From Felixounavirus LF82P5, in the sequence record OZ035800.1: DNA of 64,000 nucleotides. One strand, given 5' to 3'. The position numbers and the translations under genes were made by a program. Position 1 is the first letter of the stretch, and each line of letters begins with the position of its first letter. The notes below the pieces were generated by a model. The model did not search any database. It was not told the DNA's origin and saw nothing but the letters and a program-made list of their open reading frames with translations. This document shows positions 2,608 through 63,585 of this stretch, piece after piece.

Positions 2608-3153
2608 TCAAAAGTGTCCTTTTACTTGTGGAACATAAATTTCAAAAGTTGCTTTACCATCCTCTGATGGTTTTGACTGTACCTTTGTAAATACACGGTT
2701 ATCATACAGCTTCTCAAAGAAGTTTTCAAAAGGTAAATGCACAGTAGCCTCTTCAGTAACTTTATGGAAGACTGTATGGAACACCACACCAGCATACGGT
2801 AAAGCATTGACAAGGACACCTGCACCACCAATTACAAAGACATCTTCATCAATAGAGCTATCAAGATACTTCAAAAATGCTCCAAAGGATTCTTTGCTGG
2901 CCTTAGCATACATTACACCATCTTTGCCAAAATCTATACCTAAGTATGGTACAGAATTTGTTAAGATTAGGTTTGCACGTTCTGGTAGAGGTTTACTACC
3001 CAGAGTCTTAAAAGTCTCATTACCCATGACTACTAAGTTATTTTTAGTGAGTCTCTTAAACTCTTGCATGTCCTGTTTATGTCGAGGCCACGGCATACCA
3101 GTCGGTGTACCAAATTCACCGTTTTCACCACTTGCAAATATTAGTTTAATCAT
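2608..3153 (-). CDS. folA: dihydrofolate reductase
   Basis: 181 aa; DHFR-like N-terminus (MIKLIFA...GxxGxMPW) and size; next to thyA. Confidence 0.8.
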   Translation of the reverse strand: MIKLIFASGENGEFGTPTGMPWPRHKQDMQEFKRLTKNNLVVMGNETFKTLGSKPLPERANLILTNSVPYLGIDFGKDGVMYAKASKESFGAFLKYLDSSIDEDVFVIGGAGVLVNALPYAGVVFHTVFHKVTEEATVHLPFENFFEKLYDNRVFTKVQSKPSEDGKATFEIYVPQVKGHF

Positions 3154-4300: not shown

Positions 4301-4600
4301 TTAATCTGCCAACCTTAAATTGAAATTAACACCAAATTTTTCACATACTTCCAACATATACTCAAGGGAGACGTTACCAGTGAGATGGATTATGTTGGAT
4401 ACACGAGCCTGAGAGATACCACAAATTTTAGCAACTTGCTCTTGAGAAAGTCCTCTGGATTTAATCTCTCTCTTAAAACGATGTGCAACGAAGTCTCTCA
4501 TTTCGTCTACATCCATTGGACAAATATAACTCTCCATTTCAGCCTCTCTGTCAGCCTCCCAATCATCTTGTGGAGCATAAGGGTCAAAAACCTCATTCAT
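4301..4600 (-). CDS. helix-turn-helix DNA-binding protein (XRE-like)
   Basis: HTH signature LSQEQVAKICGISQARVSNI; start moved to internal ATG with GGAAG Shine-Dalgarno (track start 4630 is TTG). Confidence 0.5.
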   Translation of the reverse strand: MNEVFDPYAPQDDWEADREAEMESYICPMDVDEMRDFVAHRFKREIKSRGLSQEQVAKICGISQARVSNIIHLTGNVSLEYMLEVCEKFGVNFNLRLAD

Positions 4601-4806: not shown

Positions 4807-5190
4807 TTAGATACCTGTACAGCTTCTGTTTTCTAAGAAATACTCAACACCATACATAGCTTTTTGCATCAAATCTTCTTTAAACTGAATACGATGATTG
4901 AGCATAGTTTGTACATCAATATCGTCATGGTGTTTCTCTTTAATATTTGCAGATTGTAGGAAATACTCTGCAAGAACACGATACTGATAGTCAGTTACCT
5001 TATCAGTCATCTCTGTCAAAGACTCTTCAGAGATTGGTTTAAGTAGCTCACCATTAGCCAGAGCAACACCTTTTACAATCTGGCAAGTGTCTTCTGGAAC
5101 ACCTGATAAGTCTACATTTGGAAGTTCTGTTGCATTGACTGGTAAATTCATTGCCATAACCATTGCAGCGGCTAATAAAATCTTTTTCAT
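4807..5190 (-). CDS. secreted protein of unknown function
   Basis: N-terminal signal peptide MKKILLAAAMVMAMNLPVNA; GAGGT Shine-Dalgarno. Confidence 0.55.
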   Translation of the reverse strand: MKKILLAAAMVMAMNLPVNATELPNVDLSGVPEDTCQIVKGVALANGELLKPISEESLTEMTDKVTDYQYRVLAEYFLQSANIKEKHHDDIDVQTMLNHRIQFKEDLMQKAMYGVEYFLENRSCTGI

Positions 5191-5593: not shown

Positions 5594-6034
5594 TTAGAAA
5601 GGTTTTCTACGTTGCTTGTTAATGTTAGCTTTCATAGCAGCTAAATGGTTTTGCTGTTCAATTAGTCGTGAACGTTCTTGATGGCTAAGTACCATAGTGT
5701 TCACATTCTCAATCGCTTGAGTGGCTTGCTTTAAAGCACGACCAATCTTACCAGACATTTTACGTTTTGCAATAGTTGCTTGATGCTTAGGTTCAACCAC
5801 ACGATAACCAACACCCATTGAAGCAACCAGATAAATCTTCTCTTCTTTAAGAAGCTTCTCAATAAACTTCTCAAGTCGATTTAAGCGTGTAAGCGCATAA
5901 GCCTTCATTTCATCTTCGTACTTAACAATGTCACCTTGATAAGTTGGCTTCACAATACCTAAGAAGGTGTCCATCTCAGAATGTGATACAGTGTCACCGT
6001 AACTAAACTTTGCTGCTAATGCTTTTGTATTCAT
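5594..6034 (-). CDS. hypothetical protein
   Basis: 146-aa ORF with ATG start; flanked by repeat elements. Confidence 0.5.
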   Translation of the reverse strand: MNTKALAAKFSYGDTVSHSEMDTFLGIVKPTYQGDIVKYEDEMKAYALTRLNRLEKFIEKLLKEEKIYLVASMGVGYRVVEPKHQATIAKRKMSGKIGRALKQATQAIENVNTMVLSHQERSRLIEQQNHLAAMKANINKQRRKPF

Positions 6035-6036
6035 AA

Positions 6037-6642
<606 letters not shown>

Positions 6643-6787
6643 TTAGTTGATTGTTAAGTTGTTTGTAAAGAACCCTCAACAGAAGACTCTTTAGAAACTT
6701 GGTAGATTTTTAACGTGCATACTACCATCCACCCATACCGTGCCACACCACACCGGACCGTACCATTCCCAACCCTACTACACCAGA

Positions 6788-6866
6788 CCTTATTAAAAGA
6801 CCCTCTCCAAAGACCTTTTAAAAAGGTAAGTCTCATTTTAATGTAGCTGAGACTAACTACCCATAC
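6788..6866. repeat. repeated intergenic element, copy C
   Basis: Near-identical to 5390-5468 (one CC/TT difference); flanked by CA-rich tracts. Confidence 0.6.
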
Positions 6867-6994
6867 ATTACCGCACCATATTATACCCTACCCCACCATA
6901 CTTCACTGCACCGAGCCACGCATTACATCACTTAAAAACCCTTTTCAAAGACTCTTAAGTGATGCTGGTGAGTACCCGTTGGTTTATGATGCTC

Positions 6995-7022
6995 AGTATA
7001 CTCACCAAATTTCCTATGTCAA
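6995..7022 (-). promoter_or_regulatory. sigma70-like promoter (minus strand)
   Basis: Minus-strand TTGACA-16 nt-TATACT upstream of the 6037..6624 gene. Confidence 0.4.
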
Positions 7023-15096: not shown

Positions 15097-17074
15097 GGGT
15101 CGTAAATTGAAAGAGGCTGGTCAGTTTGTTGGTCATTGCGCATGTCCACGTTGTGGTTCATCAGATGCTGGTTCAATCTATCATCATGACGATGGTTCTT
15201 ATTCAATGACTTGCTTTAGTTGTAACAAAGGTTTCCCAGAGTGGGATTTTGATAAAGGACAAATCGTGAGCACTTATTCTACTGGTTCAGACAATAAAAA
15301 CCGTACTTTCCGTGGAATGGATTTAGACGATGTGAAAGAAAACCTTGAAGCAATGGACTTAAAGGACAGGAAGATTCCTGCAAAAGTTCTTGAGCGTTTG
15401 GGTATCAAGGTTGACATTGACAGTGATGGTGAAATTGACGCGCATTTCTACCCAACTTACAAACGCAATGAAGATGGCAAGCTAGAGCATGTTGGCTACC
15501 GTGTTCGTCACCGTTACCCAGAAGACCATCCAAAAGAGCACCTACGAGGTAAGTTAAAAGACTTTTCTGGTGGTGTTGGAGACATTAAAGGTGAACTGGC
15601 AATGTTCGGTTCATGGATTGCTCCAGAAGGTGGTAACCGTCTATTCATCTGGGAAGGTGAGATGGAATGTGCGACAGCAATCTATATGACTTCTCTTGCG
15701 ATTAAGGACAAATCTCGTCGTAAGAATTACTGTCACGTATCTGTTCCATCAGGTGCAAACATCAAGTCTATCAAGGATAACTATCAGTACATTACATCAT
15801 TTGATGAGATTTACTTGTGCTTTGATAACGATGAAGCAGGTGCTAAAGCCACTAAAGAGGCTGCTGGTATCCTACCTATTGAGAAGGTTCGTTTATTCCA
15901 GTATCCAGAAGGTGTAAAAGACCTTAACGAGTGGTGGACAAAGTTCTATAAAGAAAAAGATACAGTTCTGGAAGGATTTAAGCAGCGTATCTACAATGCA
16001 CCCCGTTACTGCCCTGCTGGTATCAAGAACTTCGCAGATGGTTTTGAGGCAATGAAGAATCGTGGTCAGATTCCATTGATTCCTTTCCCAGAATCTTTCG
16101 GAGATTTGAACAGACTGACTTATGGCGGTTATGGTTTAGGTGAGATTACAACTATTGCAGCACCATCTTCAGTAGGTAAGTCAGCTTACACTCGTGAGAT
16201 GATTTACTCAGCTTGGAAAGAAACTGATTATAATATCGGTGTAATTCCTGTAGAAGATACCTATGAAGAGTTGATGGAGATGCTCTGTGCAATCCACCTG
16301 AGCAAGCAGATTTCTGAGATTCCTTATGACGAACGTGATTGGGATGAATTGAAGAAGGCACACGCAGAACTGTCTAAAGGTCGTCGTATCCACATCGTTG
16401 ACCATCAAGGGGCAATTGACCAAGATAACTTGCTGGAGTTTGTTGACTATCTTGTTAACAGCTTAGACTGTAAGATTATTATTCTTGACCCTATCACGTT
16501 AGCCCTGTCACGTTCTGATACGGATGAAGAAGAAGTTTTGTCTGAGCTATTGCGTCGTTGCAAACGCTACCAGTATGCGCAGGTAAACGTATGTCACGTT
16601 CGTAAGAGTGCAGGCGGTCAGAAAGCTAACTCTGAAGGTGGAGATATCTCTGAAGAGGATATCAAAGGTTCTGGTGCGTATTTTCAGATTTCTATGAACA
16701 ACATTCTGTTAATGCGTAACAAGGTTGACCCAGACCCTGTTAAGAAAAACTTGACAAAAATCAAGTTAACTAAGTGTCGTCGTCATGGTAAGTCAACAGG
16801 TATTGCTGGTCATACTTGGTACAATCCAGATACAGGCCGTCTTATCAAAGCTTCTGGATGTGGTGTTGATATTGATGGTGCAGCAGAAAATATTCGCCAG
16901 CAGTTTGGTATTGGTGAAGCTGAAGACCATTACGATGACTCTTTGCCACATTATGAGGACGAAGTGTTTGACCGTGAGACTGGTGAAGTCTATACTGAAG
17001 AGCAGCGTCAAAGCTCAACGATTCCACCTGTATTAAGTGAGGATGCAGATGACTGCCCGTTCGAAACTGAGTGA
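15083..17074 (+). CDS. DNA primase/helicase (T7 gp4-like)
   Basis: N-terminal Cys4 zinc ribbon (CPRCGS...CFSCNKG), TOPRIM glutamate and DxD (CFDNDEAG), Walker A APSSVGKS. Confidence 0.85.
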   Translation: MLMSKGRKLKEAGQFVGHCACPRCGSSDAGSIYHHDDGSYSMTCFSCNKGFPEWDFDKGQIVSTYSTGSDNKNRTFRGMDLDDVKENLEAMDLKDRKIPAKVLERLGIKVDIDSDGEIDAHFYPTYKRNEDGKLEHVGYRVRHRYPEDHPKEHLRGKLKDFSGGVGDIKGELAMFGSWIAPEGGNRLFIWEGEMECATAIYMTSLAIKDKSRRKNYCHVSVPSGANIKSIKDNYQYITSFDEIYLCFDNDEAGAKATKEAAGILPIEKVRLFQYPEGVKDLNEWWTKFYKEKDTVLEGFKQRIYNAPRYCPAGIKNFADGFEAMKNRGQIPLIPFPESFGDLNRLTYGGYGLGEITTIAAPSSVGKSAYTREMIYSAWKETDYNIGVIPVEDTYEELMEMLCAIHLSKQISEIPYDERDWDELKKAHAELSKGRRIHIVDHQGAIDQDNLLEFVDYLVNSLDCKIIILDPITLALSRSDTDEEEVLSELLRRCKRYQYAQVNVCHVRKSAGGQKANSEGGDISEEDIKGSGAYFQISMNNILLMRNKVDPDPVKKNLTKIKLTKCRRHGKSTGIAGHTWYNPDTGRLIKASGCGVDIDGAAENIRQQFGIGEAEDHYDDSLPHYEDEVFDRETGEVYTEEQRQSSTIPPVLSEDADDCPFETE

Positions 17075-52976: not shown

Positions 52977-53441
52977 TTACTTTGGGTATACACTGTCAAG
53001 ATAAATGTCAGCTTCCATTCTACGTCTGTTTTTCAGGCCGTTTGAAGTGACCTTCTTACCTTTGACTGTAACCTTGTTCCACCACTGCATAGCTTCTGCA
53101 CAACCGACCTTATTACCAGCATTGTGGCGCTTGATAAATGTGGAATCCTGCATAGCTGTGATACCGATGTTGTATGTTTCACTTACAAGTGCATCAAACT
53201 CGTTCTGAGAAGTTGGAACCTTGATGGCTTTATTCACTGCTGCAACGAATTTTTCAACATCTGCAAGAAGATACTGTTCAGCTTGTTCAGCAGTAATTTT
53301 CATACCCATCTTAACAGGTTTTCCGTCAATACGGATTGTTCCATAACCGATTGTTGGGATTCCGGCAGAGTCTTCGTAAGCCTCTAACTTCAGACCTTCA
53401 AAGAACTTAATAGCCTCTAAACCTTTTCTTGAGAGTTGCAT
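52977..53441 (-). CDS. endolysin, T4-lysozyme-like (GH24)
   Basis: 154 aa; GLKLEAYEDSAGIPTIGYG contains the Glu-8 aa-Asp-5 aa-Thr catalytic arrangement of T4 lysozyme. Confidence 0.7.
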   Translation of the reverse strand: MQLSRKGLEAIKFFEGLKLEAYEDSAGIPTIGYGTIRIDGKPVKMGMKITAEQAEQYLLADVEKFVAAVNKAIKVPTSQNEFDALVSETYNIGITAMQDSTFIKRHNAGNKVGCAEAMQWWNKVTVKGKKVTSNGLKNRRRMEADIYLDSVYPK

Positions 53442-54574
53442 TATGCCTCCCCTGCTGGATTAACTGTAACTGTTGCTGCGTTAGATGTTACAGAGCCACC
53501 TGCACCAGTAACTACACAGGTGTAGCTTCCTGAATCAGCAGCGGTTGCACCTTCTTTGGTGTAAGTTGCAGTAGTTGCATCGAGGATGTCTTCCTCACCT
53601 TTCTTCCACTGGTAACTTGTTGCACCTGTTGCCACAACATTCAGCGTTAAGGTATCACCTTCAGTGATTCCTTGATTGGTTGGCTGTTGAGTGATTACTG
53701 GAAGTGCGTTCACAGTTACTACAGCAGCATTAGATTCCACTGCACCACCTGCACCTGTTACAACGCAAGTGTATGAACCTGCATCTGCTGGCAGAGCACC
53801 AGACTTGCTATAGGTGGCATCTGTAGCCGAAGGAATGTCAGAGCCATCTTTCTTCCACTGATAACCTGTTGCACCTGTTGCAGTCACTTCCAAGTTGATG
53901 TTTCCACCCTCATTGATAGTCTGGCTAGAAGGTTGTTGTGTAATCACAGGTAGTGCGTTCACAGTCACTGTTGCTGCATCTGAGGTAACACTTGTTCCAC
54001 CCTCTCCAGATACAACACAAGTATAAGAACCAGCATCAGAAGGTGCTACAGACTGTTTTGTGTAGGTTGCAGATGTGGCGCTAGTGATATCCTCACCATC
54101 CTTTTTCCATTGATATCCAGTGGCATTAGTTGCAATAATGCTTAGGGTAAGTGTACCACCTTCATTTACTGTTTGATTGGTTGGTTGCTGAGTAATTGAT
54201 GGTGGCTTGATAGCGTCCTTCAACTTAGCATTCAACATTGAGAATGGTTTAACTCTTGCCAGCCATTCACAATAAACTGTATCAACGTCTTTACCATTGA
54301 TAATTGCATATTGTAAGTCCATGAAGAAGTCAGAAGTTCTCATTTGAGCACCAACGCTATAAAGCAACTCATCACTAAATGGAACTTTGTAGTCTGGTTT
54401 GTAGTCAAACTTCTCAACTTCTGCGATATCAGCTTCAGGCCAATATGAGCTATAGGTGAGTGGTAAAATAGCCTCTTGATATGTTCTAAAATCATATCTC
54501 TTACCAGCCTTTACATTTGCAATGAAGCCCTTCACAAACTCTTTGAAGTCTGGGTAAGTCTTTGCTTTAATCAT
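53441..54574 (-). CDS. protein with three tandem Ig-like domains
   Basis: N-terminal roughly 130-aa domain plus three repeats of about 80 aa (ITQQP...YQWKKDG...AGSYTCVV...VTVN). Confidence 0.55.
   Translation of the reverse strand: MIKAKTYPDFKEFVKGFIANVKAGKRYDFRTYQEAILPLTYSSYWPEADIAEVEKFDYKPDYKVPFSDELLYSVGAQMRTSDFFMDLQYAIINGKDVDTVYCEWLARVKPFSMLNAKLKDAIKPPSITQQPTNQTVNEGGTLTLSIIATNATGYQWKKDGEDITSATSATYTKQSVAPSDAGSYTCVVSGEGGTSVTSDAATVTVNALPVITQQPSSQTINEGGNINLEVTATGATGYQWKKDGSDIPSATDATYSKSGALPADAGSYTCVVTGAGGAVESNAAVVTVNALPVITQQPTNQGITEGDTLTLNVVATGATSYQWKKGEEDILDATTATYTKEGATAADSGSYTCVVTGAGGSVTSNAATVTVNPAGEA
53460..54200. repeat. tandem DNA repeats (three units of about 250 bp) encoding the Ig-like domains
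   Basis: Repeated blocks on the plus strand such as CACCTGCACCAGTAACTACACAGGTGTAGCTTCCTG / CACCTGCACCTGTTACAACGCAAGTGTATGAACCTG. Confidence 0.5.
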
Positions 54575-56199: not shown

Positions 56200-56571
56200 A
56201 TGAAAAACAGAACAAACAAAGGCCAGTTTAAAAAAGGCCAGTCTGGAAACCCATCTGGAAGACCGAAAGGCTCTCGTAACAAAAGCTCACTCGTAAAAGC
56301 TCAACTGACCATTGATAATTCTGCTGAGTTTGCTGCAAAGTTGTTTGAGGCAATTGTTACAAGGGACGCTGCTAAGCTTGCAGAGTTCGGTTTAAACACA
56401 GATGACGTAACCATCAAGAGCATGATTGAGGTCGGTAAAACTATCTTTACTCACTCAGCAGGTGAGATGAAGGCACTTGCAGCAGACACTAAGAAGACTC
56501 CTGATAATGGTGGTCAACAACAGACAGATAACAAACCAACGTTCTCTGCTGTAGCGACTCTCAAAAAATAA
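56200..56571 (+). CDS. hypothetical protein with GNPSGRPKG motif
   Basis: 123 aa; N-terminal basic KGQFKKGQSGNPSGRPKGSRNK. Confidence 0.45.
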   Translation: MKNRTNKGQFKKGQSGNPSGRPKGSRNKSSLVKAQLTIDNSAEFAAKLFEAIVTRDAAKLAEFGLNTDDVTIKSMIEVGKTIFTHSAGEMKALAADTKKTPDNGGQQQTDNKPTFSAVATLKK

Positions 56572-56652
56572 TTTTAAAAGGTGTTGACAGACTCTACAAA
56601 GTTGCTCTAAAGTCTGTCACATCAAACAACAGATGAGAGAAGAGAGTAAAAT

Positions 56653-58068
56653 ATGAGCGAGTTATTTAAACATGCGCACCTTCATGCAGGTCGAACTGAA
56701 AATGGTGCTGTAAACCATACTTCATCAATGTCTGCTCTGGTAGACTTCTACAAAGCCGCTGGCTCAAGCCGTAGCAATGTAGAAATCTTACCAGACCTGT
56801 TCTACAAAGCTTTGCGTGAGGATGTTGATGTTGCAGTTCGTATTTTACTGCATATGCGAGATGTACGAGAAGGTATGGGTGAGCGTAAAGCTTTCCGAAC
56901 TGTTTTACTTCAAGCGATTGAAGATAAAGTTTTAGAGCCTACACAGGTTCTTCGCATTATGGACAAGATTGCAGAACTTGGTCGTTTTGATGACTTCAAA
57001 ATCTTCGTAGGTACTCGTTTCGAGACAGATGCCTTCAAACATTTAGAAGCAGCATTACTAGACCCTGCAACAGCAGGTTTAGCAGCTAAGTGGTTGCCAC
57101 GAGTAAAACCACGCCACAAACAGTTTGTAAAACGTTTCTGTAAGTTTGCAAACTTAAGTGAGAAGGAGTATCGCACACTGTTATCTGCACTGTCTGATAC
57201 GGTTGAGCAAAAAATCTCTGCGAATGAGTTTGGTAAGATTGACTACAGCAAGATTCCTTCACTCGCTGCTGCACGTTACCAAAAACTCTTTAACCGTAAA
57301 GATGGGGAACGTTACAAAGCTTACATCGAGTCACTCTCAAAAGGTGAGTCTAAGATTAACGCTGGTGCTGTTTACCCATACGATGTGATTAAATCTATTA
57401 AGTATGGTAATGCAGATGTTGCTAATGAGCAGTGGAAAGCACTTCCAAACTGGATGGCAGAAGGTGAAAACATCTTGTGTATGACTGATGTTTCAAGCTC
57501 AATGTCTTGGGTGAATCTTGGCTCAATTACTGCCCTTGATATTGGTGTATCACTTGCCTTATATGTAGCAGAACGCAATACAGGTTGCTTTAAAGATGAG
57601 TTAATGGTCTATTCAACAAACCCTCATTTCATTGAACTGAGTGGTGATTTACGAAACCGTCATCGTCAGGTAATGCGTCATGTTGAATATGGTTCAACTA
57701 ACTTACAAGCAGCTTTTGACCGTATTCTTGAGATAGGTAAGAGAAACAACTTGACTCAGAAAGATATGCCAAGTAAGCTTATCATCTTCTCCGATATGGA
57801 GTTCAATCAGGTTGATGGAGCTAACGGTCGTACAAACTTTGAAGCAATTCAGAGTAAGTACAAAAAAGCTGGATATGAGATGCCACAACTAGTATTCTGG
57901 TACTTAGCAAACCGTAATGGTACTTGCGAAGTGTCTGTTAAGGATAATGGTGTAGCAATGGTATCAGGGTTCTCTCCAGCCACTTTAAAAGCTCTGCTTG
58001 GTGGTGAGAAGTTTGACCCAATCAGCGTAATGCTCAAAGCAGTAATGATTGACCGTTACATCTGGTAA
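56653..58068 (+). CDS. vWA-domain protein with N-terminal helical domain (possibly Ro60/TROVE-like)
   Basis: 471 aa; MIDAS-type DxSxS (MTDVSSSMS) with downstream Thr and LIIFSDMEF; helical N-terminal half; directly upstream of the tRNA array. Confidence 0.45.
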   Translation: MSELFKHAHLHAGRTENGAVNHTSSMSALVDFYKAAGSSRSNVEILPDLFYKALREDVDVAVRILLHMRDVREGMGERKAFRTVLLQAIEDKVLEPTQVLRIMDKIAELGRFDDFKIFVGTRFETDAFKHLEAALLDPATAGLAAKWLPRVKPRHKQFVKRFCKFANLSEKEYRTLLSALSDTVEQKISANEFGKIDYSKIPSLAAARYQKLFNRKDGERYKAYIESLSKGESKINAGAVYPYDVIKSIKYGNADVANEQWKALPNWMAEGENILCMTDVSSSMSWVNLGSITALDIGVSLALYVAERNTGCFKDELMVYSTNPHFIELSGDLRNRHRQVMRHVEYGSTNLQAAFDRILEIGKRNNLTQKDMPSKLIIFSDMEFNQVDGANGRTNFEAIQSKYKKAGYEMPQLVFWYLANRNGTCEVSVKDNGVAMVSGFSPATLKALLGGEKFDPISVMLKAVMIDRYIW

Positions 58069-58086
58069 AAAGTTTTAAAAAGGGTA

Positions 58087-58115
58087 TTGACAATGTGTTT
58101 GATACCCTTTAATAT
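58087..58115 (+). promoter_or_regulatory. sigma70-like promoter for the tRNA array
   Basis: TTGACA-17 nt-TAATAT; the -35 is embedded in the inverted repeat AGGGTAT...ATACCCT. Confidence 0.55.
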
Positions 58116-58233
58116 GTTCTACATAGAAACGAAATGAGAGCTTTTCTAAGATACTGAAAAATATTTTAAAAAAGTTCTTGACAACCACTAAAAAATAATG
58201 TTAAAGTGGTTACATAGAGTTTGAAAAGTTTAT

Positions 58234-58310
58234 CTCTGTTTAGCTCAGCTTGGTAGAGCGTTCCGTTTGGGGCGGTAAGGCCGGAGGTTCAAGTCCTCCA
58301 ACAGAGACCA
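58234..58310 (+). tRNA. tRNA-Pro (anticodon TGG)
   Basis: Hand-folded cloverleaf: acceptor CTCTGTT/AACAGAG, D-stem GCTC/GAGC, anticodon loop TTTGGGG, T-arm GGAGG-TTCAAGT-CCTCC, encoded CCA. Confidence 0.6.
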
Positions 58311-58317
58311 AATTAAT

Positions 58318-58395
58318 GTTCCAGTAGACAAAATGGTAAAGTCACCACTCTTTCAAAGTGGATATTTGAGGGTTCAAATCCCTTCTGGAACGCCA
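58318..58395 (+). tRNA. tRNA-Glu (anticodon TTC)
   Basis: Acceptor GTTCCAG/CTGGAAC, anticodon stem CCACT/AGTGG, loop CTTTCAA, T-loop TTCAAAT, CCA. Confidence 0.65.
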
Positions 58396-58402
58396 GTTTT
58401 GA

Positions 58403-58475
58403 CAGAAGACCAATTGCAGCAAACTTAATCTTATTCATCTGACACGAAATCGGACAAAGAAGAGATTTGGTCTGG
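58403..58475 (+). ncRNA. stem-closed structured element E1 (candidate small RNA)
   Basis: 5' CAGAAGACCAATTGCAGCAA ... 3' TTTGGTCTGG; 7-bp closing stem AGACCAA/TTGGTCT. Confidence 0.35.
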
Positions 58476-58486
58476 TCATTAAGAAT

Positions 58487-58563
58487 TGCGGGTATAGAGA
58501 AAGGGCGTCTCACATGTCTCATTAGCATGGTATCGGCAGGTTCGACTCCTGCACCCGCCTCCA
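58487..58563 (+). tRNA. tRNA-Met (anticodon CAT)
   Basis: Anticodon stem CATGT/GCATG, loop CTCATTA, T-arm GCAGG-TTCGACT-CCTGC; U1-C72 mismatch in the acceptor stem. Confidence 0.55.
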
Positions 58564-58569
58564 ATTTTG

Positions 58570-58629
58570 CAGAAGACCGTATTCAGCAACAAAATACTTT
58601 TTGCGGATAAAAGAAAAAACACGGTCTGG
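58570..58629 (+). ncRNA. stem-closed structured element E2
   Basis: 5' CAGAAGACCGTATTCAGCAA ... 3' CACGGTCTGG; closing stem AGACCG/CGGTCT. Confidence 0.35.
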
Positions 58630-58640
58630 CAATGTATTAA

Positions 58641-58717
58641 GGTTAGGAAGCACATAAGGTATGTGCGGTCGCCTGTTAAGCGAATGGCACAGGGTTCGAA
58701 TCCCTGACTAACCGCCA
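58641..58717 (+). tRNA. tRNA-Asn (anticodon GTT)
   Basis: Acceptor GGTTAGG/ACTAACC, D-stem GCAC/GTGC, loop CTGTTAA, T-arm CAGGG-TTCGAAT-CCCTG, CCA. Confidence 0.6.
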
Positions 58718-58726
58718 AATTTAAAT

Positions 58727-58814
58727 GTGTCGTTATCCCGTAGATGGTAGCGGTGGGGACTGTAAATCCCTTGTCATTGAGACTCGGTAGGTTCGACTCC
58801 TACACGGCACACCA
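58727..58814 (+). tRNA. tRNA-Tyr (anticodon GTA), long variable arm
   Basis: Anticodon stem GGGGA/TCCCT, loop CTGTAAA, 14-nt variable arm, T-arm GTAGG-TTCGACT-CCTAC, CCA. Confidence 0.6.
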
Positions 58815-58820
58815 AATAAA

Positions 58821-58898
58821 GGTTATGTAGTTTAATCTGGTTAAAATACTCCCCTGTCACGGGAGATGATGAGGGTTCAAATCCCTTCGTAACCGCCA
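58821..58898 (+). tRNA. tRNA-Asp (anticodon GTC)
   Basis: Anticodon stem CTCCC/GGGAG, loop CTGTCAC, T-arm GAGGG-TTCAAAT-CCCTT, CCA. Confidence 0.65.
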
Positions 58899-58985
58899 AA
58901 TTATAATAAGTATTTCAAGATGATGTTTTGAGATGGCTATTTAGCCCCTCCCTTAAAGAGTTCTTACGAGTATTCTTTAAAGGAG

Positions 58986-59062
58986 CAGAAGACCAAATTC
59001 AGCAAGTACGTATGATATTTTCAAGCCAATTTAATTTTGAAAAAATTTAAAACTTGGTCTGG
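58986..59062 (+). ncRNA. stem-closed structured element E3
   Basis: 5' CAGAAGACCAAATTCAGCAA ... 3' ACTTGGTCTGG; 7-bp closing stem. Confidence 0.35.
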
Positions 59063-59075
59063 CTCAACAAATTTA

Positions 59076-59207
59076 CAGAAGACCGTTTACAGCAAAACTT
59101 AAACAATCTATTTCTCCGGTAAAGAAAAGGCGAAGGTTCGATTCCTTCACTCGGCAGATGTCGAGTTGGTGTAATGGTAGCACTTAAGATGATAAACAAC
59201 GGTCTGG
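59076..59207 (+). ncRNA. stem-closed element E4 with embedded permuted tRNA-like module (candidate Y-RNA-like RNA)
   Basis: 8-bp closing stem AGACCGTT/AACGGTCT; inner helix CTTAA/TTAAG; T-arm GAAGG-TTCGATT-CCTTC; acceptor-like helix ACTCGGC-AGAT-GTCGAGT capped by a 4-nt loop; D-arm GTGT-AATGGTA-GCAC. Confidence 0.4.
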
Positions 59208-59356
59208 TAATTATCTTTGTAGATAAGTTATTAAGCTTACCTGTGAGTATGCGACCACAAAGGGTGAAAGGGTAAATTCTAGATTTAAACCCAACAAGGC
59301 ACATCGCTACAGACCTTAAGCAAGTCTGGGTAGCTTATCTACAAAGATAATTTAAT

Positions 59357-59432
59357 GGAAGTGTAGCAGAATGGTGATGCGGCAGACTTTTAATCTGACA
59401 GGCGATGGGTTCGAATCCCTCCACTTCTACCA
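59357..59432 (+). tRNA. tRNA-Lys (anticodon TTT)
   Basis: Acceptor GGAAGTG/CACTTCT, anticodon stem CAGA/TCTG, loop CTTTTAA, weak T-stem, CCA. Confidence 0.5.
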
Positions 59433-59436
59433 ATAT

Positions 59437-59513
59437 GGTTCAGTCGCAGATAAGGTAATGCAGGGGTCTCATAAGCCCTATGAATGTGGGTTCGATTCCC
59501 ATCTGAACCTCCA
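59437..59513 (+). tRNA. tRNA-Met or tRNA-Ile2 (anticodon CAT)
   Basis: Acceptor GGTTCAG/CTGAACC, loop CTCATAA, T-arm GTGGG-TTCGATT-CCCAT, CCA. Confidence 0.55.
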
Positions 59514-59514
59514 A

Positions 59515-59590
59515 GCTGGTATAGTTAAGAAGGTTATAACACTCCCCTGATAAGGGAACATCGGTGGTTCGATTCCACCTACCAGTACCA
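59515..59590 (+). tRNA. tRNA-Ile (anticodon GAT)
   Basis: D-stem GTTA/TAAC, loop CTGATAA, T-arm GGTGG-TTCGATT-CCACC, CCA. Confidence 0.6.
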
Positions 59591-59605
59591 ATTTCAATAA
59601 AGTTG

Positions 59606-59634
59606 TTGACATTGAGATGTGACCACTTTATAGT
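59606..59634 (+). promoter_or_regulatory. internal sigma70-like promoter within the tRNA array
   Basis: TTGACA-17 nt-TATAGT. Confidence 0.5.
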
Positions 59635-59837
59635 AACCTTAGTTTTCGTTGCGTAGCGTCTATTTTGCAAATTTAAAATAAATGCAAACGACAATGTTTT
59701 TCTGGCAGTAGCTTGATAGGCTAAACACCAGTGAGGTCTTCCAATCCCTCATCAAAGAATTTGGCGTACTCGCCCACGGTATGATTAATAAGGTGGGCAT
59801 CTTTAAGGGCTTTCTAAGAGAGTCTTTAAAGATTAAT

Positions 59838-59914
59838 GCACCCTTAGTTCAATTGGATAGAGCAACGGTCTTCTAAATCGTTAGTTACAGGTTCGAATCC
59901 TGTAGGGTGTGCCA
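59838..59914 (+). tRNA. tRNA-Arg (anticodon TCT)
   Basis: Acceptor GCACCCT/AGGGTGT, D-stem GTTC/GAGC, loop CTTCTAA, T-arm ACAGG-TTCGAAT-CCTGT, CCA. Confidence 0.65.
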
Positions 59915-60062
59915 AATAGTTAGCAGATTGCTTAGACGACCTTATCGGGTCTCCGTGTAAGGAGGTGGTCTGTATCTCATGTTTTCCAGAACATGTAAAT
60001 AATCTGAGAAGGGGCTTTACAGTGTTGCGAAAATACGGTAAGCTTCGAATTATAGTTTTAAT

Positions 60063-60133
60063 AGGGGTGAGCTATGGCAGCAATAGAGTCTCCAAAATTC
60101 TTGATTAGAGTTCGAATCTCTACACCCCTGCCA
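60063..60133 (+). tRNA. tRNA-like sequence with degenerate anticodon arm (possible pseudogene)
   Basis: Good acceptor AGGGGTG/CACCCCT, D-stem CTAT/ATAG and T-arm TAGAG-TTCGAAT-CTCTA, but no pairable anticodon stem and only about 68 nt. Confidence 0.3.
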
Positions 60134-60147
60134 GAACAGGTGCTTGT

Positions 60148-60552
60148 ATGAAACTTTGTAGAAAATGTTCTCAAGAAAAGCCTTTAAGCTGCTTTCATAA
60201 AAGAGGTAATGGCTATCAGTCTGCTTGCAAAGATTGTAAAGCTAAGTACTCAGCAAAGAGATACAAAGAAGACCCTACTTATAAAGCAAAAAGAAAAGTT
60301 AGGGCGAAATATGACAAAAAGAGGAACAGAGAGTTCCTTAGTAGATATAAAAAGTTTTGCAAATGCAGAATATGTGGCGAATCTGAGCCAGTAGCTTTGG
60401 ATTTTCATCACTTAGACCCTAAAGAGAAAGATTTTGCTCCAAGCAATCTTAAGACTTACTCTAGAGGCACTATTAAGCGTGAAGTCCGTAAGTGTGTTGT
60501 GCTTTGTTCAAACTGTCATAGGAAAGTTCATGCAGGACTGTTAAGTATTTAA
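60148..60552 (+). CDS. HNH endonuclease embedded in the tRNA array
   Basis: 134 aa; Cys-rich zinc-binding N-terminus and HNH core DFHHLDPKEKDF...CSNCHRKVH. Confidence 0.7.
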   Translation: MKLCRKCSQEKPLSCFHKRGNGYQSACKDCKAKYSAKRYKEDPTYKAKRKVRAKYDKKRNREFLSRYKKFCKCRICGESEPVALDFHHLDPKEKDFAPSNLKTYSRGTIKREVRKCVVLCSNCHRKVHAGLLSI

Positions 60553-60565
60553 CAGTCTTATTAGG

Positions 60566-60655
60566 GGTAGGTAGCGGCTAATGGCAGCCAAACAGTCTTG
60601 AAAACTGTTGCCACTGTAGAGATACGGTGAGGGTTCGACTCCTTTACTTACCGCC
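60566..60655 (+). tRNA. tRNA-Ser (anticodon TGA), long variable arm
   Basis: Anticodon stem ACAGT/ACTGT, loop CTTGAAA, roughly 20-nt variable arm, T-arm GAGGG-TTCGACT-CCTTT. Confidence 0.6.
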
Positions 60656-60811
60656 TAATAAGATTTAAAGCCAAGCTTCATTCGGATGTTGCTTTGGTAT
60701 CCCTCGTGTATTGTCGTACACGCACAGTAAAGCACCTAGTAGGTGTCACGGAGAAGAGATAATATCAAGCTCTCCAAAGGTTCTAGTCACCGGATTAAAC
60801 AAGACTATGCA

Positions 60812-60832
60812 AAGACCAAATTAGGTCTTTTT
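60812..60832 (+). terminator. hairpin plus T run inside the tRNA array
   Basis: AGACC-AAATTA-GGTCT followed by TTTTT. Confidence 0.4.
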
Positions 60833-60911
60833 AGAGGGCTTCTAAGGTTATTACAGCTTGTTGTGGAACCTTGTTGCTTAGGTTCTTAGAAGTTCTCTAA
60901 AAAGATTTAAT

Positions 60912-60988
60912 GCACCTATAGCCCAATTGGTAGAGGCAGCAGACTTAGAATCTGCTCAGTGTGAGTTCGAATCTCTCTAGGTGTACCA
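60912..60988 (+). tRNA. tRNA with Leu-type anticodon TAG, short variable arm
   Basis: Acceptor GCACCTA/TAGGTGT, Leu-like D-arm GCC-CAATTGGTAGA-GGC, 6-bp anticodon stem AGCAGA/TCTGCT, loop CTTAGAA, 5-nt variable region. Confidence 0.45.
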
Positions 60989-60995
60989 AATTAAT

Positions 60996-61071
60996 GCAGG
61001 TGTAGCAAAATGGTTATGCGGCTGACTCTTAATCAGTAAGACGATGGGTTCAATTCCCTCCACCTGTACCA
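60996..61071 (+). tRNA. tRNA-Lys (anticodon CTT)
   Basis: Acceptor GCAGGTG/CACCTGT, loop CTCTTAA, same weak T-arm as the other Lys tRNA, CCA. Confidence 0.5.
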
Positions 61072-61077
61072 AACATT

Positions 61078-61153
61078 GGGGTCATAGTTTATATGGTTAA
61101 AATTCGAGTTTTGCAAACTTGGGAACTGAGTTCAATTCTCAGTGACTCCACCA
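61078..61153 (+). tRNA. tRNA-Ala (anticodon TGC)
   Basis: Anticodon stem CGAGT/ACTTG, loop TTTGCAA, T-arm CTGAG-TTCAATT-CTCAG, CCA. Confidence 0.55.
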
Positions 61154-61159
61154 ATTAGT

Positions 61160-61234
61160 GCATCCATAGTTTAAACGGGAAAATTACAGTCTTCCAAACT
61201 GAGGTTGAGGGTTCGATTCCCTCTGGATGCTCCA
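61160..61234 (+). tRNA. tRNA-Gly (anticodon TCC)
   Basis: Acceptor GCATCCA/TGGATGC, loop CTTCCAA, T-arm GAGGG-TTCGATT-CCCTC, CCA. Confidence 0.6.
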
Positions 61235-61241
61235 AATTAAT

Positions 61242-61317
61242 GCTCCTATCGTATAATTGGCTATTACGGTTGCCTTGTAAGCAACTTATCAGGGTTCGAA
61301 TCCTTGTGGGAGCACCA
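61242..61317 (+). tRNA. tRNA-Thr (anticodon TGT)
   Basis: Anticodon stem GTTGC/GCAAC, loop CTTGTAA, T-arm CAGGG-TTCGAAT-CCTTG, CCA. Confidence 0.65.
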
Positions 61318-61321
61318 ATTC

Positions 61322-61408
61322 AGAGGTCAAGTGAAAGACCGCTTTGAGTCAACTGAAGACCGTAACAAATCCCACGGAGTTGAGTTAGCGGCACAACTTC
61401 AGACCTCT
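61322..61408 (+). ncRNA. stem-closed structured element E5
   Basis: Perfect 7-bp closing stem AGAGGTC/GACCTCT enclosing about 73 nt with two AGACCG motifs and internal hairpins; no T-loop. Confidence 0.3.
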
Positions 61409-61413
61409 TTCAT

Positions 61414-61488
61414 ACTCGCTTAGTTTATATGGTAAAACATCACCCTTACAAGATGAAGAAAAAGGTTCAAGTCCTTTAGTGAGTACCA
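61414..61488 (+). tRNA. tRNA-Val (anticodon TAC)
   Basis: D-stem GTTT/AAAC, loop CTTACAA, T-arm AAAGG-TTCAAGT-CCTTT, CCA. Confidence 0.55.
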
Positions 61489-61489
61489 T

Positions 61490-61567
61490 GTTCCAGTATC
61501 CCAATTGGCAGAGGATGCAAGCTCAAACCTTGTACTAGTGACGGTTCGAATCCGTCTTGGAACACCA
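61490..61567 (+). tRNA. tRNA with Leu-type anticodon CAA, short variable arm
   Basis: Leu-like D-arm TCC-CAATTGGCAGA-GGA, anticodon stem GCAAG/CTTGT, loop CTCAAAC, T-arm GACGG-TTCGAAT-CCGTC, CCA. Confidence 0.45.
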
Positions 61568-61572
61568 ATTTT

Positions 61573-61648
61573 GCAGGATTAGTTCAAATGGATAGAGCAA
61601 CAGTCTACGAAGCTGTTAATAGGGGTTCGAATCCCTTATCCTGCGCCA
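61573..61648 (+). tRNA. tRNA-Arg (anticodon ACG)
   Basis: Acceptor GCAGGAT/ATCCTGC, loop CTACGAA, T-arm AGGGG-TTCGAAT-CCCTT, CCA. Confidence 0.6.
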
Positions 61649-61667
61649 ATTTAAAGAGGCTATTTAG

Positions 61668-62225
61668 ATGAGATATTTGAAGTATGCTTCATGGATTTTC
61701 TTAGCTTTGTTAGAGCCATTTGCAGCAATCTTAGCAGTTATCTTAGCACCTTTCGTAGTTCCATTCTACAGTGAGAAGAAAGGACATCTCCCTTTTGGAT
61801 TCAGATGGATGGAGACATATGACAACCAAATTGATGGTGATAAAGGTCATGTCGAACGATGGGCTAAGATTAGAAAGATTGGTAAGCTTGGTGTCTATAT
61901 GCAGAGAGTTGGTTGGCTCTGGAGAAACAAAGCTTATAACTTCTCTTACCATGTGTTAGGAAGAGATGTAAAAGATGTTACTAAGTGGAAAGGCAATATC
62001 AATGTAAGTTCTAACCCTGAAGATAATCAGACAGGTTATCTCCTAATGTGGAACAGTAATGCTTGGGGATTATTCGCTTTTGTACCATCAATTAAAATCT
62101 TTGGTAAACAATTCTACTGGAGAATTTATGTTGGGTGGAAACTTAAAAGTGTTGTCCCAGAAGAAAGGGCATTCTCAAGGGAAAGAGTTATGTTGGCATT
62201 CTTTATTCATCCACTAAGAAAATAA
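61668..62225 (+). CDS. membrane protein of unknown function embedded in the tRNA array
   Basis: 185 aa with AGAGG Shine-Dalgarno; hydrophobic N-terminus (WIFLALLEPFAAILAVILAPFVVPF). Confidence 0.5.
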   Translation: MRYLKYASWIFLALLEPFAAILAVILAPFVVPFYSEKKGHLPFGFRWMETYDNQIDGDKGHVERWAKIRKIGKLGVYMQRVGWLWRNKAYNFSYHVLGRDVKDVTKWKGNINVSSNPEDNQTGYLLMWNSNAWGLFAFVPSIKIFGKQFYWRIYVGWKLKSVVPEERAFSRERVMLAFFIHPLRK

Positions 62226-62233
62226 AGATTTAA

Positions 62234-62309
62234 AGGGGATTAGTTTACAAGGTTAAAACCTCGGTCTTTGAAATCGAAGAAGTTGGTTCAATTCCAACAT
62301 CCCCCGCCA
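62234..62309 (+). tRNA. tRNA-Gln (anticodon TTG)
   Basis: D-stem GTTT/AAAC, anticodon stem TCGGT/ATCGA, loop CTTTGAA, T-arm GTTGG-TTCAATT-CCAAC, CCA. Confidence 0.55.
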
Positions 62310-62311
62310 AT

Positions 62312-62390
62312 GCTCCATTACTCCAATTGGCAGAGAGGCCAGACTTAAAATCTGTGTTATGTATCGGTTCGAATCCGATATGGAGTACCA
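62312..62390 (+). tRNA. tRNA with Leu-type anticodon TAA, short variable arm
   Basis: Leu-like D-arm CTC-CAATTGGCAGA-GAG, anticodon stem CAGA/TCTG, loop CTTAAAA, T-arm ATCGG-TTCGAAT-CCGAT, CCA. Confidence 0.45.
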
Positions 62391-62395
62391 AATTT

Positions 62396-62471
62396 AGCGG
62401 TATAGCATAACTGGCAATGCAACAGTCTCTGAAGCTGTCTTATTAAGGTTCAAATCCTTATGCCGCTGCCA
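62396..62471 (+). tRNA. tRNA-Gln (anticodon CTG)
   Basis: D-stem GCAT/ATGC, anticodon stem ACAGT/GCTGT, loop CTCTGAA, T-arm TAAGG-TTCAAAT-CCTTA, CCA. Confidence 0.55.
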
Positions 62472-62502
62472 CTTCTAAGGGTTCTTACGAGAGTCCTTAA
62501 AT

Positions 62503-62578
62503 GTGGCCTTATCATAAATGGTAATGACCCATGCTGTGAACATGGTCTATACGGGTTCAAATCCCGTAGGTCACCCCA
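62503..62578 (+). tRNA. tRNA-His (anticodon GTG)
   Basis: Anticodon stem CCATG/CATGG, loop CTGTGAA, T-arm ACGGG-TTCAAAT-CCCGT, CCA. Confidence 0.6.
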
Positions 62579-62583
62579 ATTTA

Positions 62584-62658
62584 TAGTCCAAGTAGCTTAT
62601 ATGGTTAAAGCGCGTGTCTGAAAAACATGAGAAGAGGGTTCAAATCCCACTGGACTAC
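62584..62658 (+). tRNA. tRNA-Phe (anticodon GAA)
   Basis: Perfect acceptor TAGTCCA/TGGACTA, loop CTGAAAA, T-loop TTCAAAT; D-arm register uncertain. Confidence 0.45.
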
Positions 62659-62676
62659 CAATTTCAAAGGTGCTTA

Positions 62677-63411
62677 ATGAAAGAGATGACAGAACAAGGT
62701 AAGGAGATTTTTAATCTCTTAAAAACCGGTAGAGGGTTTTCTAATCCCCTTATTACTGGTGCAGCAGTTCTCGGTGGAACCGTAGCTGCCTCTACATCAC
62801 TTGTAAGCTCTATTAGCTCTGTATCAGACCCTACAGTAAAGGATAAGCTTGTTGCTGCTGGACTTACAACAGTTCTGCTTAACAGCTTTACCACGAGTCT
62901 GACAAGCACTACATCAACTACCAAAACACTAACAGATTACGGTCAAAAGTCCATTGATGAGTTTTCATCACGTATGCAGGTAGCAAAAGGTTACTCTAAT
63001 GTTATGGGTGCAGCAGGTGAACAAGTTGGCTGTACACCATTTAGTGGTATTATGGGTGTTGCTACAGAGTATGGTCAAAAAGCTATTGACACGATTAACA
63101 GTACACTAGATAGTGTTAACGATGTGTTAAGTGACTTACAAGATGCTATTGATAAGGGTCTTGATACTGTTTCTGATTTAGCTAACCAAGCTGTTAGTAA
63201 GATTAATGAAGGTATCTCAAAGATTACAGCTTATGCAGATGAAGTTGTGCAGATGATTGAAGAAGAAGCTGCCCTTATTGCAGAGTACCTTAAAACGAAT
63301 ATCAATGGGTTCTTAGCAGGTATCTTACCAGACTGGTTTGATGATGCCTGTAAAACTGGTGTAATTGACACTATTGCAACACCAGAAATGAAGAGCGCAT
63401 TACAGAAATAA
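62677..63411 (+). CDS. Ser/Thr-rich protein of unknown function
   Basis: Track ORF begins with GTG inside tRNA-Phe; start moved to ATG 62677 with AAAGG Shine-Dalgarno. Confidence 0.45.
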   Translation: MKEMTEQGKEIFNLLKTGRGFSNPLITGAAVLGGTVAASTSLVSSISSVSDPTVKDKLVAAGLTTVLLNSFTTSLTSTTSTTKTLTDYGQKSIDEFSSRMQVAKGYSNVMGAAGEQVGCTPFSGIMGVATEYGQKAIDTINSTLDSVNDVLSDLQDAIDKGLDTVSDLANQAVSKINEGISKITAYADEVVQMIEEEAALIAEYLKTNINGFLAGILPDWFDDACKTGVIDTIATPEMKSALQK

Positions 63412-63412
63412 T

Positions 63413-63505
63413 GGAAGATTAACCCTAAAAGGTAAGGGAGCAGTTTGCTAAACTGCCAGTAGCTGAGAAATCGGTGTACCAGTTCAAGTCTGGTATCTTC
63501 CTCCA
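63413..63505 (+). tRNA. tRNA-Ser (anticodon GCT), long variable arm
   Basis: Perfect acceptor GGAAGAT/ATCTTCC, anticodon stem GCAGT/ACTGC, loop TTGCTAA, 20-nt variable arm, T-arm ACCAG-TTCAAGT-CTGGT, CCA. Confidence 0.65.
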
Positions 63506-63509
63506 ATTT

Positions 63510-63585
63510 GAATCCGTGACAGAAATGGATATGTACCTGTCTGCAAAACAGGTTTATAAGGGTTCGAGTCCCTTCGGATTCTCCA
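63510..63585 (+). tRNA. tRNA-Cys (anticodon GCA)
   Basis: Perfect acceptor GAATCCG/CGGATTC, anticodon stem CCTGT/ACAGG, loop CTGCAAA, T-arm AAGGG-TTCGAGT-CCCTT, CCA. Confidence 0.65.

Follow-up and report, generated by a model that had tools for sequence, protein, structure and literature searches.

Ro60/Y-RNA particles are conserved from bacteria to humans and their roles are partly understood, with phage versions studied in one system. In bacteria, Y RNAs tether Ro60 to PNPase. The bacterial Ro60 protein Rsr is accompanied by YrlA/YrlB or Yrn1 RNAs (Salmonella, M. smegmatis, Deinococcus; PMC4201824). In the Thermus phage phiLo, the TROVE-annotated protein phiRo60 occurs with Yrl1 and Yrl2 (PDB 9KOP, 9L5Y), and it was found that phiRo60 and the Yrl RNAs bind host PNPase and slow it (PMC12135203). 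A survey of Y RNAs in bacteria and phages from 2014 was restricted to genomes with Pfam TROVE-annotated proteins, which leaves the DUF2828 family outside its scope. Here we analyzed a gene of that family from Felixounavirus LF82P5 (OZ035800.1), encoded at 56653-58068 (+) in a stretch of 64,000 nucleotides (nt; the whole stretch is called the window), together with four small RNA elements, E1 to E4, that share a CAGCAA motif and lie in the tRNA array behind it. We consider it likely that the divergent Ro60-type protein encoded by this gene forms a Ro60/Y-RNA-like particle with E1-E4 as its partner RNAs.

The closest described protein is gp130 of phage Bas63 (bas63_0130; Escherichia phage JohannRWettstein, MZ501086), which has the same length and is identical to the window protein at 461 of 471 positions (98%); judged by this identity, the window protein is an orthologue of a tested anti-Ppl protein. 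In the PhageMaP 2024 preprint (PMC11482910) gp130 was described as having 'high structural similarity to Ro60' and as lying directly upstream of tRNA genes. Deletion of gp130 makes Bas63 sensitive to the Ppl defence (ATPase and PHP domain), and with gp130 alone, supplied on a plasmid or built into its genome, T7 again forms plaques on Ppl hosts, so the anti-Ppl phenotype was shown experimentally by others for the 98%-identical orthologue (PMC11482910). The authors speculated that some annotated tRNAs near gp130 might be Y RNAs (PMC11482910). The synteny is the same in both phages, with a DUF5681 gene, gp130 and then tRNA-Pro and the array. The preprint named no RNA partner, whereas our candidates are unannotated elements in the gaps between annotated tRNAs, and Bas63 carries counterparts of E1-E4 at 16066-16912 of its locus (L084). 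Since gp130 was called Ro60-like in the preprint, the protein-level idea of the preliminary description of this DNA, made from its sequence alone, was correct and already in the literature; what appears to be new here is the class of RNA partner. Full-text searches of the literature, with most subscription-journal papers beyond reach, found no partner RNAs described for the DUF2828 family, and the CAGCAA RNA class, absent from the searchable literature and from Rfam 15, is apparently undescribed.

The gene begins with ATG and, as had been claimed, codes for 471 amino acids (aa). The protein matches Pfam PF11443 (DUF2828; 5.2e-29) and PF25043 (DUF7788; 2.4e-43), both above their gathering scores, and the profile phrog_850 'RNA-binding protein' (1.9e-183) over profile positions 1-476 of 476, with a sub-threshold match to VWA_2 (4e-4); DUF7788 and VWA_2 fall on the C-terminal vWA domain. 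An NCBIfam scan gave no meaningful match, and PADLOC gave zero matches for this protein and for its upstream neighbour, so that no defence-system membership was found. In an alignment of 60 homologues (40-89% identity) the metal ion-dependent adhesion site (MIDAS) of the von Willebrand A (vWA) domain, which had been read as DVSSS with a downstream Thr and Asp, is present as D279-x-S281-x-S283 with T349 and D381 and is invariant, as are the basic residues R40, R69, R72, R78, R111 and K146 of the N-terminal half. Relatives were found by tblastn in 709 phage records, from phages of Escherichia, Mycobacterium, Salmonella, Vibrio, Listeria, Staphylococcus, Campylobacter, Enterococcus, Bacillus and others, under labels that vary between 'RNA-binding protein', 'Ro-like RNA binding protein', 'vWFA protein', 'DUF2828' and 'hypothetical'. 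In a large protein collection, 2249 cluster representatives among 8000 scored candidates match the family. The region matches Felixounavirus LF82P5 at 100% identity and many Felix O1-like phages at 94-99%, and outside the Felixounavirus group the protein had no match in any E. coli phage.

The AlphaFold 2 model of the protein (predicted local distance difference test score 89.9) is all-helical at about residues 28-263 and alpha/beta at 274-448, in agreement with the helical N-terminal half proposed before. The overall fold of the model is an alpha-helical (HEAT-like) ring domain followed by a vWA domain, as in Ro60 and TROVE proteins. The preliminary description had recommended a structure prediction with comparison to Ro60, which thus returned a Ro60-type ring and vWA fold, and also profile searches, which recovered DUF2828 and, below threshold, VWA_2 but not TROVE. 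Its TROVE-like reading is supported at the level of the predicted fold and is not borne out by sequence, where Pfam TROVE (PF05731) is unmatched. Pfam vWA_Ro60 (PF25045) gives weak matches only, in 13 of the 60 members (best E 4.7e-4). A phmmer search against PDB sequences found nothing relevant for the 471-aa protein, and the family profile reached Xenopus Ro60 (1yvp) at E = 1.1 and in the MIDAS segment only, so sequence alone cannot establish the Ro60 relationship. The predicted model supports the earlier Ro60-like interpretation and indicates that the gene encodes a divergent Ro60-type protein, with a helical TROVE-like ring and a vWA domain with MIDAS. DUF2828/DUF7788 is a sequence family sister to the canonical TROVE proteins and is very widespread in phages.

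The 'stem-closed elements' of the preliminary description do exist, as four copies of one architecture between 58400 and 59210 (Table 1), 330-1140 nt downstream of the Ro60-like gene and on its strand. E1-E3 are short (66-83 nt) and E4 is 138 nt long. E1 begins 4 nt past tRNA-Glu and ends 8 nt ahead of tRNA-Met, E2 lies 3 nt past tRNA-Met and 8 nt ahead of tRNA-Asn, and E3 and E4 sit in a 458-nt gap behind tRNA-Asp. The outer 4-bp helices of the four elements differ yet pair (UGAC/GUCA, UUGC/GCAA, GAGC/GCUC and UUAC/GUAA); inward of them follow an AGA/G internal loop, a conserved helix AGACCNN/NNGGUCU and then, on the 5' side, (A/U)U(N)CAGCAA. A structure-aware scan of both strands of the 64 kb returned exactly E1-E4 plus four looser chance matches. 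E1 is conserved in Felixounavirus and Mooglevirus, and in relatives the outer helix of E2 changes from UUGC/GCAA to UUAC/GUAA with pairing kept.

E4 contains the only orphan T-arm in the window, and Rfam tRNA gives a weak 22-bit match at 59099-59149 inside it. The order of its interior is a T-arm (GAAGGUUCGAUUCCUUC), a closed 7-bp acceptor-like hairpin, one nucleotide and a D-arm (GGUGUAAUGGUAGCACU), which is the circularly permuted tRNA-like arrangement that defines bacterial YrlA. The E4 orthologues of Bas63, Citrobacter phage Maleficent and Shigella phage Sf19 keep the T-arm, D-arm and closing stem of E4, and their acceptor-like hairpin is compensated (ACUCGGC/GUCGAGU, ACCCUUC/GAAGGGU or ACACG/CGUGU). 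RNAalifold, run on four E4 orthologues from Felixounavirus and Mooglevirus, recovered the whole architecture with three doubly compensated pairs in the acceptor-like hairpin.

Directly after E4 there is a further structure at 59209-59352 (+), with a closing stem of about 24 bp (AUCUUUGUAGAUAAG...CUUAUCUACAAAGAU) and no CAGCAA; its minimum free energy is -48.3 kcal/mol (z = -6.0), a stability that 0 of 200 shuffles reached, and it may be either a structured RNA or a DNA-level inverted repeat. In public records, small 'hypothetical protein' coding sequences overlap CAGCAA elements at 4471-4560 of locus L092 and 2903-3040 of locus L093, and in Bas63 one such coding sequence (L084, 16749-17023) overlaps E3/E4 and the adjacent hairpin. 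These are probably annotation artefacts on RNA genes.

The linkage of such elements to the protein family was examined in 80 viral-contig loci that encode relatives, 75 of them from outside Felixounavirus (39-47% identity). The exact Felixounavirus motif (GACC...GGTC core) gave only chance matches in distant loci and is confined to Felixounavirus. Locus L006 (47% protein identity) has analogous elements with the same UUCAGCAA and with helices AGAGCAC/GUGCUCU, AGAGCAGU/ACUGCUCU and AGGACAC/GUGUCCU, one of them enclosing an orphan T-arm. Because of these chance matches and of the compensated helices in L006, the descriptor was generalized to a strict form with a helix of at least 7 bp, 1-4 nt, CAGCAA and the 3' strand within 170 nt. 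In the 80 loci it matched 111 times on the strand of the gene vs 16 times on the opposite strand. When only the 75 non-Felixounavirus loci are counted, the matches thin out with distance from the gene, from 0.70/kb in the nearest 250 nt to 0.50/kb at 250-500 nt and about 0.035/kb past 2 kb, a 20-fold enrichment near the gene. An element stands no more than 700 nt from the gene in 40 of the 75, among them 22 of the 42 that lack tRNAs. A relaxed descriptor covered 56 of the 75 loci, with about 5 expected by chance, and found long elements with an orphan T-arm inside them in at least 13 further loci. Orphan T-arms in the 1.36 Mb number 71 on the strand of the gene and 0 on the opposite strand.

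The general closing helix has 7-8 bp, 5'-W-A-G-R-N4 ... N4-Y-C-U-G-3', followed on the 5' side by single-stranded U-W-CAGCAA. Positions that the descriptor does not impose are conserved among 64 distinct elements: -9 is G and -10 is A/U in 61 each, -2 is U in 59, and the 3' strand is followed by G in 58. When CAGCAA was counted without pre-selection for pairing, its density was 1.20/kb near the gene on its strand vs 0.36/kb far from it and 0.23/kb near it on the other strand; a closing helix goes with 39% of the sites near the gene on its strand, with 9.7% of the distant ones, with about 4% of the minus-strand ones and with none of the 55 that fall within the gene (Fisher p = 2e-11). The tRNA adjacency was also considered as the defining link. 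It is real but partial, as tRNAs occur in the flanks of 33 of the 75 loci and within 1 kb in 17 of the 75, always on the strand of the gene, and the RNA element is the tighter correlate.

Some of the permuted modules in loci L030, L046 and L077 (e.g., L077, 11843-11917) carry 'CCA' after the acceptor 3' strand in the closing loop, such as CACCACA-ccaacta-UGUGGUG, and the Maleficent hairpin ACCCUUC-gccaaaca-GAAGGGU is a similar case; these resemble circularly permuted tRNA genes. By analogy to what was reported for M. smegmatis YrlA, processing by RNase P or a CCA-related processing is a possibility for them.

The same association was found in distant phages and in an independent set. All five loci of distant homologues (29-37% identity) have two or three strict elements beside the gene. 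In Mycobacterium phage BigCheese three tandem elements lie 41-297 nt downstream of the gene, and the long one contains a T-arm, a closed 7-bp hairpin and a D-arm-like stem. Three elements are upstream of the Ro60-like gene in Listeria phage LMSP-25 and three downstream in Staphylococcus phage S-CoN_Ph16, two are upstream in Campylobacter phage F367, and Synechococcus phage B23 has one on each side. In an independent replication set of 80 bacterial-assembly loci (33-43% identity) there were 141 matches on the strand of the gene vs 22, the density fell from 1.82/kb within 250 nt to 0.037/kb at 2-4 kb (49-fold), and in 54 of the 80 loci an element occurs at up to 700 nt from the gene, in most cases on its upstream side. 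The elements lie mostly outside long open frames, as 27% of them, vs 79% of random segments, are covered by a frame that runs for 100 codons or more without a stop. In four control regions of phages without the protein (the tRNA arrays of T5, the T4-like RB27 and an rV5-like phage, and 30 kb of phage JohannJBalmer; 68 kb, both strands) the strict descriptor gave zero matches.

Two of the distant loci contain further RNA features. In LMSP-25 (L091) the Ro60-like gene has a near-threshold ROOL RNA (1428-1979; 88.5 bits against a gathering score of 99.1, E 1e-16) about 1 kb upstream and an RtcB 'tRNA-splicing ligase' (5808-7019) 1.3 kb downstream, which together with tRNAs and the three CAGCAA elements makes a dense RNA-centred neighbourhood. 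In B23 (L094) the CAGCAA element on the downstream side of the Ro60-like gene is followed at once by a 110-nt 'tRNA-Undet' (4848-4957; Rfam tRNA 51 bits over the 110 nt), which may be a tRNA-like RNA with an intron or of some other unusual kind.

When this system is compared with the described ones, the bacterial Rsr particles share with it the protein fold, the partner RNA genes within a few kb on the same strand, and the combination of one long RNA with a tRNA-like module and loop-closed acceptor stem (YrlA) with shorter RNAs that have no module (YrlB). The YrlA-type module (T-arm, closed 7-bp hairpin, D-arm) of E4 has the same layout in BigCheese, L006 and other loci, and the RtcB ligase near the gene in the Listeria phage recalls the rsr-yrlBA-rtcBA operon. 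Unlike the Rsr system, the protein belongs to another sequence family, GNCGAAN0-1G is replaced by CAGCAA and the Rfam models are unmatched. From phiRo60 the window protein differs in that it is unmatched by Pfam TROVE and shares 15-17% identity with it, and the phiRo60 RNAs have a CGAA motif whereas those of the window have UWCAGCAA instead. A different kind of precedent is found in phage T4, where rnaC and rnaD (annotated in RB27) are small stable non-tRNA RNAs from the phage tRNA cluster that are matured with the cluster. E1-E4 are likewise small non-tRNA elements within a phage tRNA gene cluster, but the T4-like control region has no CAGCAA element.

Several results weigh against a Ro60/Y-RNA-like particle. 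Pfam TROVE does not match the 471-aa protein at E <= 1 and matches 0 of the 60 family members even at E <= 10. Rfam (15) places no Y_RNA, YrlA or other family on E1-E4 at E <= 5 and no family on the elements of the five distant loci at E <= 1, and the known Ro60-binding motifs (the GGUCCGA bulged helix; GNCGAAN0-1G / CGAA) are absent from the CAGCAA elements. In about a quarter to a third of the loci no element was found with the descriptors used. Helix positions -7 to -4 show three or four Watson-Crick pair types each, with rare G-U, in a table of 64 elements where the pairing is partly imposed by the selection criterion. Three MAFFT alignments placed the 3' strands out of register, with interiors of 40-180 nt; because these alignments were poor, structure-aware scans with tests of strand, distance and control loci were used in place of a covariance model. 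The rescue of T7 by gp130 alone took place without the Bas63 RNAs (PMC11482910). Independent evidence for the linkage comes from the strand bias, the distance dependence, the conserved positions that were not imposed, the control loci and the covariation among orthologues. The most economical reading, which builds on the predicted fold, is that both partners would have diverged past sequence recognition, the protein keeping the ring and vWA fold and the RNAs retaining the Y-RNA plan of a conserved end-pairing stem, a single-stranded and likewise conserved motif next to it, an interior that varies and a tRNA-like module in one of the paralogues.

One other explanation is that the protein works alone, with its vWA/MIDAS face or its ring blocking the Ppl ATPase-PHP effector or another host protein, and that the CAGCAA RNAs are functionally independent of it. 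The main evidence for this is the T7 plaquing restored by gp130 by itself, which means that the anti-Ppl activity needs no phage-encoded partner RNA, and the 471-aa protein may accordingly have an RNA-independent activity or use host RNAs; moreover, the invariant MIDAS is a classical protein-ligand site. We regard this explanation as unlikely, as it accounts neither for a same-strand RNA element beside the gene in phages of at least five bacterial phyla and in two independent sets, nor for the preservation of the whole Ro60 RNA-binding ring fold, and host RNAs could substitute in the T7 experiment. If the likeness to Ro60 were limited to the vWA domain, the protein could be an ordinary vWA protein, be it structural, chaperone-associated or MoxR-type, that plays no RNA role, and it is true that sequence detects the vWA part only (VWA_2 at 4e-4 and Ro60 1yvp at E = 1.1 at the MIDAS); this idea is effectively refuted by the fold searches and is hardly tenable.

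The elements themselves could be cis-acting signals, either for leader or trailer control (e.g., autoregulation) or for processing and punctuation of the tRNA operon. Such a role would fit the bacterial-assembly set, in which 127 of 135 flanking elements are upstream of the gene and many are 30-250 nt away, and also the window, where the elements lie within the tRNA transcription unit. The Felixounavirus elements, however, are downstream, with promoter-like sites and two tRNAs between them and the gene, other lineages have elements on either side of the gene, and no element was found in the tRNA arrays of control phages without the protein, whereas 22 of 42 loci without tRNAs have one. The elements also come as 2-4 tandem paralogues, with long versions that carry a tRNA-like module. 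The either-side position, the tandem copies, the tRNA-like versions and the Felixounavirus copies inside the tRNA unit make a cis role less likely, and as a general explanation we find it quite improbable; in those lineages where the elements stand just upstream of the gene, a cis-regulatory role may still exist.

For the Ro60/Y-RNA-like particle the following course of events can be suggested. The fold, the RNA structures and the genetic linkage were shown computationally, and we further infer that the 471-aa protein would bind E1-E4 physically, that these RNAs would be co-transcribed and processed, and that the particle would have a downstream target. E1-E4 are probably transcribed together with the tRNA array, and since E1 and E2 are only 3-8 nt from the flanking tRNAs, ordinary tRNA 5' and 3' processing would release at least these two. 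The particle would most likely act in RNA metabolism during infection, where it may either protect phage RNAs (tRNAs, transcripts) or, by analogy to phiRo60, tether, restrain or redirect a host exoribonuclease such as PNPase, and the protein would also neutralise the host Ppl defence. The RtcB gene near the Listeria phage homologue fits a context of RNA damage.

Table 1. Position, strand and basis of the features identified around the Ro60-like gene of the window.
Feature	Position	Strand	Basis
Ro60-like protein gene	56653..58068	+	Pfam DUF2828 and DUF7788; PHROG 850 'RNA-binding protein'; Bas63 gp130 orthologue
N-terminal all-helical domain, aa 1-265, TROVE-like by fold	56653..57447	+	
C-terminal vWA domain, aa 275-455, complete MIDAS (D279, S281, S283, T349, D381)	57475..58017	+	
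E1, short CAGCAA element between tRNA-Glu (ends 58395) and tRNA-Met (starts 58487)	58400..58478	+	Repeat family, common fold, descriptor
E2, short CAGCAA element between tRNA-Met (ends 58563) and tRNA-Asn (starts 58641)	58567..58632	+	Repeat family, common fold, descriptor
E3, short CAGCAA element downstream of tRNA-Asp	58983..59065	+	Repeat family, common fold, descriptor
E4, long CAGCAA element with permuted tRNA-like module (T-arm 59132-59148)	59073..59210	+	Fold, orphan T-arm, RNAalifold
Promoter-like TTGACA-18-TAAAGT upstream of Ro60-like gene	56584..56613	+	Consensus scan, 10/12 matches
12-bp hairpin just past stop codon, overlapping -35 of next promoter-like site	58079..58110	+	Terminator-like scan
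Promoter-like TTGACA-17-TAATAT	58087..58115	+	Consensus scan
Promoter-like TTGACA-18-TAAAGT with TG, 27 nt before first tRNA	58178..58207	+	Consensus scan
Array of 27 tRNA genes, E1-E4 embedded near 5' end	58234..63585	+	ARAGORN; Rfam tRNA

The TTGACA-17-TAATAT site that had been proposed to drive the tRNA array is present, with a gap of 18 nt, and not 19, from the stop codon to its -35. Promoter-like matches are no commoner in this DNA than in shuffled sequence, and the three sites in Table 1 are therefore to be read as consensus matches only. The hairpin at 58079-58110 has no clear U-tract, which makes its role uncertain. All 27 tRNA genes called by ARAGORN are on the + strand, and Rfam confirms 24 of them at gathering score; weak Rfam matches to Dicty_Class_I, tmRNA and miRNA in the array were treated as chance.

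The array also contains two non-tRNA gaps and three open reading frames. The gap at 59591-59837 (+) opens with the best promoter consensus of the region (TTGACA-17-TATAGT, 59606-59634) and has weak tmRNA-like Rfam matches (E about 3e-3 to 5e-3, below gathering score). The other gap is at 59915-60062 (+), and in some relatives its equivalent is preceded by an extra T-arm for which ARAGORN calls no tRNA. A Cys/His-rich frame of 134 aa (60148-60552, +) has an equivalent in related phages that is annotated as an HNH (homing) endonuclease, and its presence and position differ between relatives, which suggests mobility. The frames at 61668-62225 (+; 185 aa, hydrophobic N-terminus) and 62614-63411 (+; 265 aa, Ser/Thr-rich) interrupt the array and are hypothetical proteins in Bas63 (bas63_0153 and bas63_0159). 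Upstream of the Ro60-like gene, its 123-aa neighbour (56200-56571, +; DUF5681 in RefSeq) keeps this adjacency in Felixounavirus and Mooglevirus. Further away, a 377-aa protein with three near-identical immunoglobulin-like repeats (53441-54574, -), an Ig-like domain protein in Bas63, adjoins the endolysin region.

The protein family is found in about 700 sequenced phages and among thousands of metagenomic proteins; as a rule its members are called 'hypothetical' or 'RNA-binding protein', with no RNA known for them. A partner RNA that can be defined by sequence turns this vague annotation into a testable particle, and with the partner-RNA class in hand the function of a very common phage gene becomes directly testable. 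The CAGCAA RNAs account for unannotated gaps, and probably for some spurious small open reading frames, in phage tRNA arrays. They also offer a way to study how gp130-type proteins overcome the Ppl defence, a question that bears on the engineering of therapeutic Felix O1-like phages. We see about an even chance that DUF2828/DUF7788 proteins and CAGCAA RNAs make up a previously unrecognised and very widespread second Ro60/Y-RNA branch, one that would be specific to phages and prophages of many bacterial phyla, recognise RNA by a code of its own, and serve to manipulate RNA decay in the host or defences based on nucleases. If this is true, a Ro60 ring and a tRNA-mimicking RNA would have remained partners even though the sequences of both had diverged beyond recognition.

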